Source: Escherichia coli (GTDB lineage Bacteria > Pseudomonadota > Gammaproteobacteria > Enterobacterales > Enterobacteriaceae). Taken from it: 64,000 nucleotides of DNA. The stretch's first letter is position 1. Every line of letters begins with the position of its first letter. Below, one piece after another: positions 34,590-37,500 of the stretch. The position numbers are program-made. The DNA is taken from assembly GCF_029227855.1 (NCBI RefSeq), contig NZ_CP074356.1; one strand, given 5' to 3'.

Positions 34590-37500
34590 TAAATTTAATA
34601 CAGCATCTATCGCCGGATGCGATGCTTTGCGAACGCAGCCTGAGCCTGCATATAAACTTGTCATTTCCTGATTTTGATATGCACATTCCAACATCAGAAG
34701 AAGGTTAAATTATGGATGACAAACCATTGCAGGCTCTGGCCAATCAACTCAAAACACCGGCTCAAGAAAGTCAGCGTAATGGCTTCTTCTGACTGCAACA
34801 GGTGAAGAAGCACCGGATGCATGAGCGATTTCTTATAGTTATTCCTTTGCTTAATAACGATTATTTCCGGGTCGTTCGCTCTCGTATTTTCTTTAATACG
34901 TCAGAGCTGCCTGGGCCGTAATACAGCATGTACCAGACCCGACACGGCATTTCTGACCAAGGGAAAAAGTCAACGATGAGTCGTTATATCAGCGCAAGTG
35001 ACGTCCTGTGGCACCTTTGCGGTGACCACATTCACGTCTCCGGCGCTGCCAGAGGATATTTATTTCAAGGATACGTAGCATTATGGCCAGCATTAAAGAC
35101 ATCCGCCCATTCGCCCCCGGCATTCCCCCATCTTCCGTTAACCCAGGCGTACGCCCACCAGGGCAGTTCTTCCTGCCGGTGGAACTCAAGAATGAAATTT
35201 TGCGGAACATGAAGTATATCGGCCCGCAAATATTTAGCTGGGGTGATGACCACCGGCAGATCATTGACCTCAGTACCGCGGGAGAAGTGAAAATACATAT
35301 GGTAGACAATACCATCATCACGTTGGAGCGCCTGAATCCGAATCCGCAACATAACGAGTTCATGATGGTCGCCGAATGGTGCCAATGGGCTATGGAGCGG
35401 GATGGTTTGCAAGAAAACCTGCAAAAAAACCTGTACGAAATCCTGGAAGAAAACCAGCAAAACAAACAGTCAGAAATTCCCCAAGAAGACCTGAAAGAAA
35501 GTCTGGAAGAAATCAAGGAAAATATCCTGGAAGAAAACCTGCCAGCAAGCCGGATTGAAAACCGGGCAGAAGCATTGCGCAGAATGAAGGAATGTCTCAT
35601 TACAAGACGGAGTATGCTCAATCTTAGCAACCTTGGATTGACTTCACTCCCTGAAAATTTGCCTCCACATCTGATTGAATTTTACTGCAGTAAAAACGTG
35701 TTGACCGCGTTACCGAAGGTGATGCCAAAGTGGCTGCTGGTGCTTGACTGTACAGATAACGTCTTGATCTTGTTACCGAAGGTGCAGCCCTCAAAACTGA
35801 TGGTACTGAAGTGCTATGAAAACTGTATTATCTGGCTGCCTGAGCTGTCGACTAACCTGAGAGTGATTAACTGTTCTGAAAACTTCTTGCAATTTTTACC
35901 GCCGTCGATGCCCCAGTACCTGTATAAACTATCCTGTGCCGGCAACAATATTAACTCAATACCTGATGAGATGCTGGAGAACTTGACTCGCCTGAAAGTA
36001 TTTGACTGTTCTAGTAACGATTTGATCTCTGCACCACGGCTGCCGCCCAAACTAATCATATACTACTGTGGAGAAAACCAGTTTAAAACGGTACCGGTGC
36101 CGCAGCCCCGAAGCCTGAAGGTGTTTAGCTGTAATGGTAACCCGTGGGACAAAGACAATTTACCGACGCTGTTCAAAGCCGTCGAGGGCCTGAAAAAACA
36201 GCAGGGCCTGAAGGACCTTTTGGGCTTTTTGCACAAGGAGGGCCAGATGAAGCTGGAGAAGCTGGAGAAGCTGGAGGATCTGGATGACCTTATGGATCTA
36301 GAGCTCCTGGATGACCCGGTACTCCTGGAGCGCGTGAAGGTACAGGAGGACCTGGAGCTCCTGAATCAGCAGTTGGGTCTGTTGATTCTGGAAAGACAAC
36401 AGGACTCGCAGCCTGTTAATCAACATTCTGAACATGAACCCGAATCTGCATCAAGGGTGAAGCGTGATTTATCTGAAGTCGAGTTCGAGTCAACAATGAA
36501 ACGTAAGCGTTTTATGTAGAACGCCTGTGCGGTGAACTCAGGTTCCGGGGAAATAGTGTCCATCATTGTAATGGACACTATCATGGGAAATGGCTCTGTC
36601 GCATCAACAACTACAGTTGCTGACCAGCCGGATGGATGATTTTTTCGCAACCAGAAGACGCTGCCTCCGATCCGGCTTACAACAAGTTACACTGTCACAA
36701 CCGGGACACGTAACGCCAGCGCGCACATCAACTCATAGCCCACCGTTCCGGCAGCGGCGGCGACATCATCAATTTTGATCTCCTTGCCCCACAGCTCAAC
36801 CGGCGTACCAATCCCCGCCTGCGGGCAAGGCGTTAAATCAACCGCCAGCATATCCATCGAGACGGTCCCCACCGTCATGGTGCGCACGCCGTCCACTAAA
36901 ACAGGAGTACCGGTAGGCGCATGGCGCGGATAACCGTCGGCGTAGCCTGCGGCGACAATGCCGATTCGCTGTTCATCGCGCGCAGTATAGCGACCGCCGT
37001 AGCCCACACGCTCGCCCGCTTTTAGCGTCTGGACGCCAATAATCTCGCTGCTTAGCGTCATCACCGGACGTAATCCGGTATTGGCGATATCACGCCACTG
37101 ACCGGACGGCGAAGCGCCATACAAAATAATGCCAGGCCGAACCCAGTCAAAATGCGCTTCCGGGTGCCACAGAGTCGCCGCCGAATTGGACAACGAACGC
37201 CGACACTCCAGCCCTTCCGCCGCCTGCTCAATACGCGCCATCGCGCTGGAAATTCCATCAGGATGTTCCGCCTCGGCAAAATGCGACATCAGGGTCATTT
37301 CGCCAACATTCGCCATCGCCCGCAACTGCTGCCAGACGGTAAGCACGCGATCGGGCTGGAAGCCCAACCGATTCATCCCACTGTTCACTTTAAGATAAAT
37401 ATCCAACGGGGCTTTTAGCCGTGCATTTTGCAGTGCTTTGAGCTGCCAGTTGCTGTGTACGCAGGTGGTCAGGCGGTGCTGGTCATAAATCTCCAGATCC

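Follow-up and report, generated by a model that had tools for sequence, protein, structure and literature searches.

The spacer between cvrA and the LRR gene

The window, the whole stretch of 64,000 nucleotides of Escherichia coli DNA that was analysed, carries ldcA (31847–32761), cvrA (32856–34592, + strand) and a gene for a 478-aa leucine-rich repeat (LRR) protein (35083–36519, + strand); dadX and then dadA come after the LRR gene on the other strand. With cvrA ending at 34592 and the LRR gene starting at 35083, the spacer between them has the 490 bp given in the initial annotation of this DNA. Within this spacer, an ATG at 34712 opens a frame of 26 codons on the + strand, which closes with a TGA ending at 34792 and whose product is MDDKPLQALANQLKTPAQESQRNGFF. 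This small open reading frame (sORF) had been pointed out along with a purine-rich sequence upstream that resembles an RBS, and three possible identities had been offered for it: a small protein missing from the annotation, a leader peptide, or an ORF arisen by chance. Both the frame and the RBS are there as described, the latter as a Shine-Dalgarno (SD) motif GAAGGT at 34700–34705, 6 nt 5' of the ATG.

The LRR protein carries Pfam LRR_4, and its LRR domain is like that of the SlrP/SspH2 type III effectors; the respective NCBIfam matches (SlrP 5.5e-22, SspH2 1.2e-17) are both far below the family cut-offs. It bears no E3-ligase (NEL) part and ends in an acidic, repetitive C-terminus (LEKLEKLEDLDDLMDLELLDD). 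The length and the 5' sequence of the gene differ by strain (446–478 aa), and in one O145 strain an IS3 element lies right after it.

A good start region in a crowded window

The duplex of GAAGGT with the 16S 3' end is predicted at -5.5 kcal/mol, compared with a median of -4.8 for the ORFs of at least 200 aa in the window, and the SD score of the sORF falls within the top 9% among the window's 20–59-aa ORFs. An equal or better SD score is found for 25 other ATG ORFs of 26–59 aa in the 64-kb window, and the region 32000–38000 alone is overlapped by 89 ORFs of at least 20 aa. An ORF with an SD is, taken alone, not beyond chance. The sORF stands above chance because its SD, its ATG and its first 13 codons are homologous to the 5' ends of IS256-family transposase genes. 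That the frame is a pure chance ORF behind a fortuitous purine-rich stretch—a reading to which the 25 short ORFs with equal or better scores lend some weight—is refuted by this homology, which extends to the transposase starts of hundreds of IS copies, and is left with almost no probability. Still, chance came closest among the three identities that had been offered; what it missed is the origin of the frame in the decayed 5' end of an IS1414-like transposase gene.

The left end of an IS1414-like insertion sequence

The segment 34642–34809 is, with high confidence, the degenerate left end of an insertion sequence of the IS256 family, IS1414-like in kind, and the sORF within it would have no selected coding function. 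This relic is an unannotated, ordinary mobile-element remnant, whose transposase start has persisted in the form of a short open frame. The segment contains the terminal inverted repeat, the 5' UTR, the RBS and ATG of the transposase gene, codons 1–13 and, after internal deletions, codons ~84–95. On the + strand, 34642–34711 are taken up by the inverted repeat of the element's terminus (GAGCCTGCATATAAACTTGTCATTT...) and by the 5' UTR of the transposase gene, as placed by blastn and by alignment with two IS copies and the K-12 'IS1414 (partial)', and the SD at 34700–34705 comes from the transposase gene by descent. The sORF itself (34712–34792, + strand) is a mosaic of transposase codons 1–13, an out-of-frame stretch, codons ~84–88 and the TGA. 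In the alignment, its middle stretch is read out of the ancestral transposase frame following internal deletions, and the TGA sits where the intact transposase gene has GAA (E89). A second block of transposase homology (...NGFF*LQQVKK vs DGSFEPQLVKK) lies at 34775–34809 on the + strand and was found by tblastn of aa 77–103 against the long alleles as well as by blastn at IS nt 336–394.

An intact copy on an Enterobacter plasmid (L007), whose 402-aa transposase matches Pfam Transposase_mut (2.7e-119) and NCBIfam IS256 (1.2e-128), served as reference. This copy is taken to be IS1414-like because a second reading frame in it is astA-like, which is the hallmark of IS1414. Its nt 12–124 align with window 34639–34749 at 80.5% identity (blastn, E 6e-25), a match that spans IRL, UTR, RBS and codons 1–13; the ungapped identity of the window's IS end to two IS copies amounts to 83–90%. 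The translated sequences align as well: MDEKQLQALANELAKNLKTP corresponds to MDDKPLQALANQLKTP, and DGSFEPQLVKKNQTRITGM to NGFF*LQQVKNNQPRITGI in the longer alleles. The string GAAGGTTAAATTATGGA is identical at the start of the sORF, at the start of K-12 ymgM and in a further IS copy (L023). Moreover, a query with the long-form spacer of strain SCU-109 (381 bp) hit 713 plasmid records; the mobile-element matches among these have an 'IS256 family transposase' feature beneath them, at ~82% identity and E 1e-20. In MG1655, the annotation likewise records an 'IS1414 (partial)' in the same cvrA–dadX spacer. IS1414 is assigned to the IS256 family (McVeigh et al. 2000, as cited in PMC12585946); in E. 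coli, deletions and point mutations have frequently eroded its copies (PMC12585946).

Of an intact Mutator-type DDE transposase (Pfam PF00872, NCBIfam NF033543) only codons 1–13 and ~84–95 are left, and the 26-, 53- and 65-aa + strand peptides that different strains encode from the same ATG match no Pfam or NCBIfam family; for these two reasons the element is regarded as a relic and not as an active IS member. When the spacer was searched with the complete IS by sensitive blastn, neither a right inverted repeat nor a target-site duplication was found, and nothing beyond IS nt 394. The astA (EAST1) probe gave a match in the reference IS (81%, E 3e-19) and none in the window spacer, from which that part of the gene is deleted. 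No more transposase remnants were found by tblastn and blastn in 34810–35082 or in a 159-bp segment that is present in the long alleles.

An IS256-family, IS1414-like element most probably once inserted just downstream of cvrA, and the SD (GAAGGT) and ATG are the translation-initiation region of the transposase gene itself. At least three internal deletions, a TGA/CGA stop polymorphism and a further deletion of 159 bp just 3' have, on this reading, left 26 codons open.

Variation among E. coli strains

The relic region is kept in 832 of 5426 complete E. coli genomes and, hence, absent from ~85% of them. Among the 832 carriers, 703 bear the long form and ~129 a short form like the window. The two differ by the 159-bp deletion at 34809/34810, which is lineage-specific (vs SCU-109 and RM9872), cuts the second transposase block and removes sequence that codes for the C-termini of the 53- and 65-aa + strand ORFs, along with much of a 95-aa ORF on the minus strand.

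For a closer comparison, the window was set beside 14 RefSeq genomes chosen across the identity range, which makes 15 alleles, selected by hand. Every one of them has an intact ATG. From this ATG the ORF runs over 26 aa in nine alleles, 53 aa in four and 65 aa in two; the stop codon is TGA in 9/15 and CGA in 6/15 (those with 53 or 65 aa), and this distribution does not track the other substitutions. The SD is mutated in 2/15 alleles, to AAAG and AATG. Within the sORF, 3 synonymous and 8 nonsynonymous polymorphisms yield a pN/pS of 0.67 (Fisher p 0.69), a value drawn from no more than 11 changes in these 15 hand-selected alleles. The variable sites are spread over the codon positions as 4/2/4, with no excess at the third. 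The last 84 codons of cvrA in the same strains, taken as control, show 17 synonymous changes and 0 nonsynonymous ones, and all their variable sites are third-position. The density of segregating sites is 0.136 in the sORF vs 0.07–0.08 in the flanking spacer.

A genuine, selected 26-aa small-protein gene that annotation pipelines have missed is very improbable given these data. What speaks for it is the good SD at the correct spacing, the ATG that every allele retains and the hypothetical-protein calls that some RefSeq genomes have for the 53- and 65-aa forms. A reading frame conserved in related genomes was not found, however: its length and stop are polymorphic, the SD is mutated in two strains, nonsynonymous changes outnumber synonymous ones with no third-position bias where cvrA shows the opposite, most complete genomes lack the region altogether, and part of the ORF lies outside the ancestral transposase frame. 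In addition, a search of 5.8 billion proteins returned 29 homologues, all of them short (29–86 aa), nameless and without a Pfam domain, and wherever a source is named it is E. coli or Enterobacteriaceae. A literature search for the peptide string of the sORF gave no match, and the region is missing in K-12 and O157, for which translation data are available. Judged by comparison of these alleles, the small-protein gene is thus largely refuted. Of the small protein proposed in the initial annotation, the RBS holds true—by descent from the transposase gene—while the selected, conserved gene does not.

A contig scan with GTTAAATTATGGAYGAYAAAC gave four loci, none labelled Escherichia, and does not bear on other Escherichia species; one of the four is E. 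coli DNA binned with a 'Collinsella' MAG, and another is an IS1414-like copy. The MAG contig (L021; JAIJJM010000586.1, 'Collinsella sp.', 2088 bp) carries the E. coli sequence immediately 3' of cvrA and the relic with an sORF allele of the SCU-109 type, and looks from its sequence like E. coli contamination of the MAG bin.

Depending on the genome, PGAP calls at the relic the + strand ORF, one of several minus-strand ORFs (50–95 aa) or nothing. The second case raises the question whether a real gene might lie on the opposite strand, where the window has a 42-aa ORF at 34694–34822 (minus strand) that extends to 95 aa in the long alleles (PGAP WP_001544521.1). Such a gene is called by PGAP in several genomes, but its annotated length is 50, 51, 78 or 95 aa by strain next to the 42 aa here, some annotations do not have it at all, it has no Pfam match and it amounts to no more than the antisense strand of the transposase relic; we consider it highly implausible. 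Neither the 42- nor the 95-aa minus-strand peptide found a family in Pfam/NCBIfam profile scans. The idea that the 95-aa ORF ('ADETPLQLL') is an IS66 transposase fragment was also considered and has no Pfam support.

Transcription, RNA structure and the leader-peptide question

A sigma-70 scan returned 0 promoter-like sites, and cvrA is the likely source of any read-through transcript over the sORF. On the + strand, a terminator scan predicts nothing between cvrA and the sORF; its sole terminator-like site is a minus-strand one. A REP-like hairpin (GCATCTATCGCCGGATGCGATGC) with TTTG behind it occupies 34602–34626, directly after the stop codon of cvrA. This hairpin is the only + strand candidate for a 3' end signal of cvrA and is too weak for the terminator scan, which flags it on the minus strand.

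Two inverted repeats surround the start region. The left arm of the first, 13 nt long (GCCTGAGCCTGCA, 34638–34650), is 92% complementary to a right arm (TGCAGGCTCTGGC, 34728–34740) within sORF codons 6–10, as found by repeat search; the predicted MFE fold pairs the two arms and encloses RBS and ATG. Even so, the modelled accessibility of SD/AUG hardly shifts with the 5' end of the transcript (0.55 vs 0.46). The second repeat is a perfect one of 10 nt (TCAGAAGAAG / CTTCTTCTGA) at 34694–34703 and 34783–34792, that is, in the 5' part of the SD region and in the last sORF codons with the stop. In short transcripts the MFE fold pairs these two segments; by eye, the intact IS is less complementary at the equivalent positions. 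The 10-nt repeat is probably fortuitous.

These features bear on the suggestion that the sORF acts as a leader peptide or an upstream ORF and, by being translated, controls the LRR gene that lies 3' of it. The sORF does lie upstream of that gene on the same strand, and the perfect 10-nt repeat that joins the SD region to the end of the ORF could be counted for this suggestion. It is not borne out, though: no attenuator-like terminator is found 3' of the ORF and no + strand terminator-like site is predicted anywhere in 34400–35300, there is no run of regulatory codons, and the distance from the sORF to the LRR start varies from 290 nt here to 449 nt in most strains. Furthermore, strains that have all retained the LRR gene differ in the length and stop of the ORF, and no Rfam cis-regulatory match appears, a scan of 34300–35400 giving noise only (snoRNA models at E >2). 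Control of the LRR gene by the sORF is, accordingly, scarcely credible.

YmgM and the possible use of the inherited start

The cvrA–dadX spacer of K-12 holds ymgM (b4740), which encodes 67 aa (MDDKQLQAQAAF...) from the same IS-derived start. Comparison of MG1655 (L006, 2189–2464) with window 34464–34740 assigns the RBS and the first ~9 codons of ymgM to the IS1414 transposase start, the next ~15 to the spacer 3' of cvrA and the last 43 to sequence antisense to the cvrA 3' end. By its sequence, YmgM (Pfam PF23693) looks chimeric. It shares with the sORF only the RBS and the first 8 codons; the 26-, 53- and 65-aa sORF peptides give no match to Pfam PF23693, while K-12 YmgM itself scores 1.6e-51. 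The window does have an antisense ORF over the cvrA 3' end (34464–34694, minus strand) that corresponds to YmgM residues 12–67 (PF23693, E 1.7e-37). Its N-terminus is a different one, without the IS-derived start of K-12 YmgM, and in strain 7/2 PGAP labels it 'hypothetical protein, incomplete'.

In several genomes (L003, L008, L012, L015 and L019), RefSeq/PGAP gives cvrA as 'incomplete, missing C-terminus' (1671 nt; window equivalent of this 3' end ~34526–34592), and the 578-aa cvrA ORF is intact in L003 despite this label. At the cvrA 3' end, PGAP places a 48- or 62-aa antisense 'hypothetical protein' (CDS of 147 or 189 nt; the 147-nt CDS at L003 2405..2551). The 'incomplete' label and the antisense call look like an annotation artefact of a YmgM-like overlap.

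YmgM is among the small proteins detected in an epitope-tag immunoblot screen (VanOrsdel et al. 2018, PMC6001520, Table 1), in which the presence of an RBS was a significant predictor of small-protein detection (VanOrsdel et al. 2018, PMC6001520, Tables 1 and 2). Since YmgM is detected by immunoblot, the same start region can be used by ribosomes. Ribosome occupancy of the sORF is possible for the same reason, as it is a nearly identical copy of this start that begins YmgM in K-12. Transcription of cvrA that reads through the weak REP-like hairpin could bring ribosomes to the inherited RBS, where they would start a short, unselected peptide as they do at K-12 ymgM. Given cvrA read-through, translation of the sORF is plausible from its sequence. 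That the inherited RBS and ATG are indeed still used, and that a 26-aa peptide (53 or 65 aa elsewhere) is made from cvrA read-through, unselected and in parallel to YmgM, is a possibility we would put forward tentatively, with the odds rather against it.

History of the locus in O157:H7 and K-12

The O157:H7 deletion corresponds to window 34704–36408 and takes away half the SD, the sORF and LRR codons 1–442, whereas the K-12 junction is at window 36449. What remains of the LRR gene in the cvrA–dadX spacer is the last ~36 codons in O157 and the last ~23 in K-12. As far as these junctions tell, K-12 and O157:H7 lost the LRR gene by two different deletions, and the arrangement of the window is apparently the fuller and older one.

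In K-12-like genomes, the last ~23 LRR codons adjoin the inverted repeat of a 102-bp 'IS1414 (partial)' fragment that is oriented towards cvrA. This fragment shares 96.5% identity with a modern IS copy and 85% with the window relic, and on account of this difference it is most likely an independent, younger IS1414 insertion. The same difference led us to reject a simple inversion of the window segment between 9–13-nt inverted repeats as the origin of the K-12 arrangement. K-12 is better matched by a scenario in which the element entered the LRR gene at codon ~456 and a later deletion stopped at the shared 14-nt AGCCTGAGCCTGCA, whereby the order of the two steps is inferred.

Three versions of the cvrA–dadX spacer thus exist in E. 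coli: one with the relic and the LRR gene, one with an O157-type deletion and one with a K-12-type second IS1414 fragment.

Implications

The sORF itself opens no new biological question. The relic does guard against over-annotation, as it shows that a convincing intergenic SD and ATG can be the fossil of a transposase gene; at this relic PGAP is already inconsistent on both strands. It also explains the origin of the start of YmgM, a validated small protein of K-12. If the relic start were used, the 5' end of IS1414 would act as a movable cassette for translation starts, from which two lineage-specific micro-proteins, the sORF peptide and YmgM, have sprung at one locus, and the spacer would offer a small natural example of gene birth driven by insertion sequences.

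Comparison with known systems

With IS1414, the relic has in common a homologous left inverted repeat, 5' UTR, RBS, ATG and N-terminal codons. It differs in being reduced to ~170 bp at ~80–90% identity, without the DDE domain, the astA segment and the right end.

The RefSeq hypothetical proteins WP_157832600.1 and WP_023908772.1 (53 aa) and WP_001605297.1 and WP_001366223.1 (65 aa) start at the same ATG in the same frame in other E. coli. Their CGA is a TGA here, and the window does not have the 159 bp that encode their C-termini.

Transposase starts of IS10 and IS50 are reportedly protected from outside transcription by a fold-back of the transcript (Mahillon & Chandler 1998). The relic is similar in that its terminal repeat is complementary to codons 6–10 and the predicted fold encloses RBS and ATG; it is dissimilar in that the predicted accessibility barely depends on the transcript 5' end.

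Finally, the IS1414 (partial) and ymgM of K-12 differ from the relic in their orientation: the K-12 fragment points the opposite way and reads antisense into the cvrA 3' end. Locus, kind of element and start region are nevertheless the same, with MDDKQLQA in K-12 and MDDKPLQA in the window.
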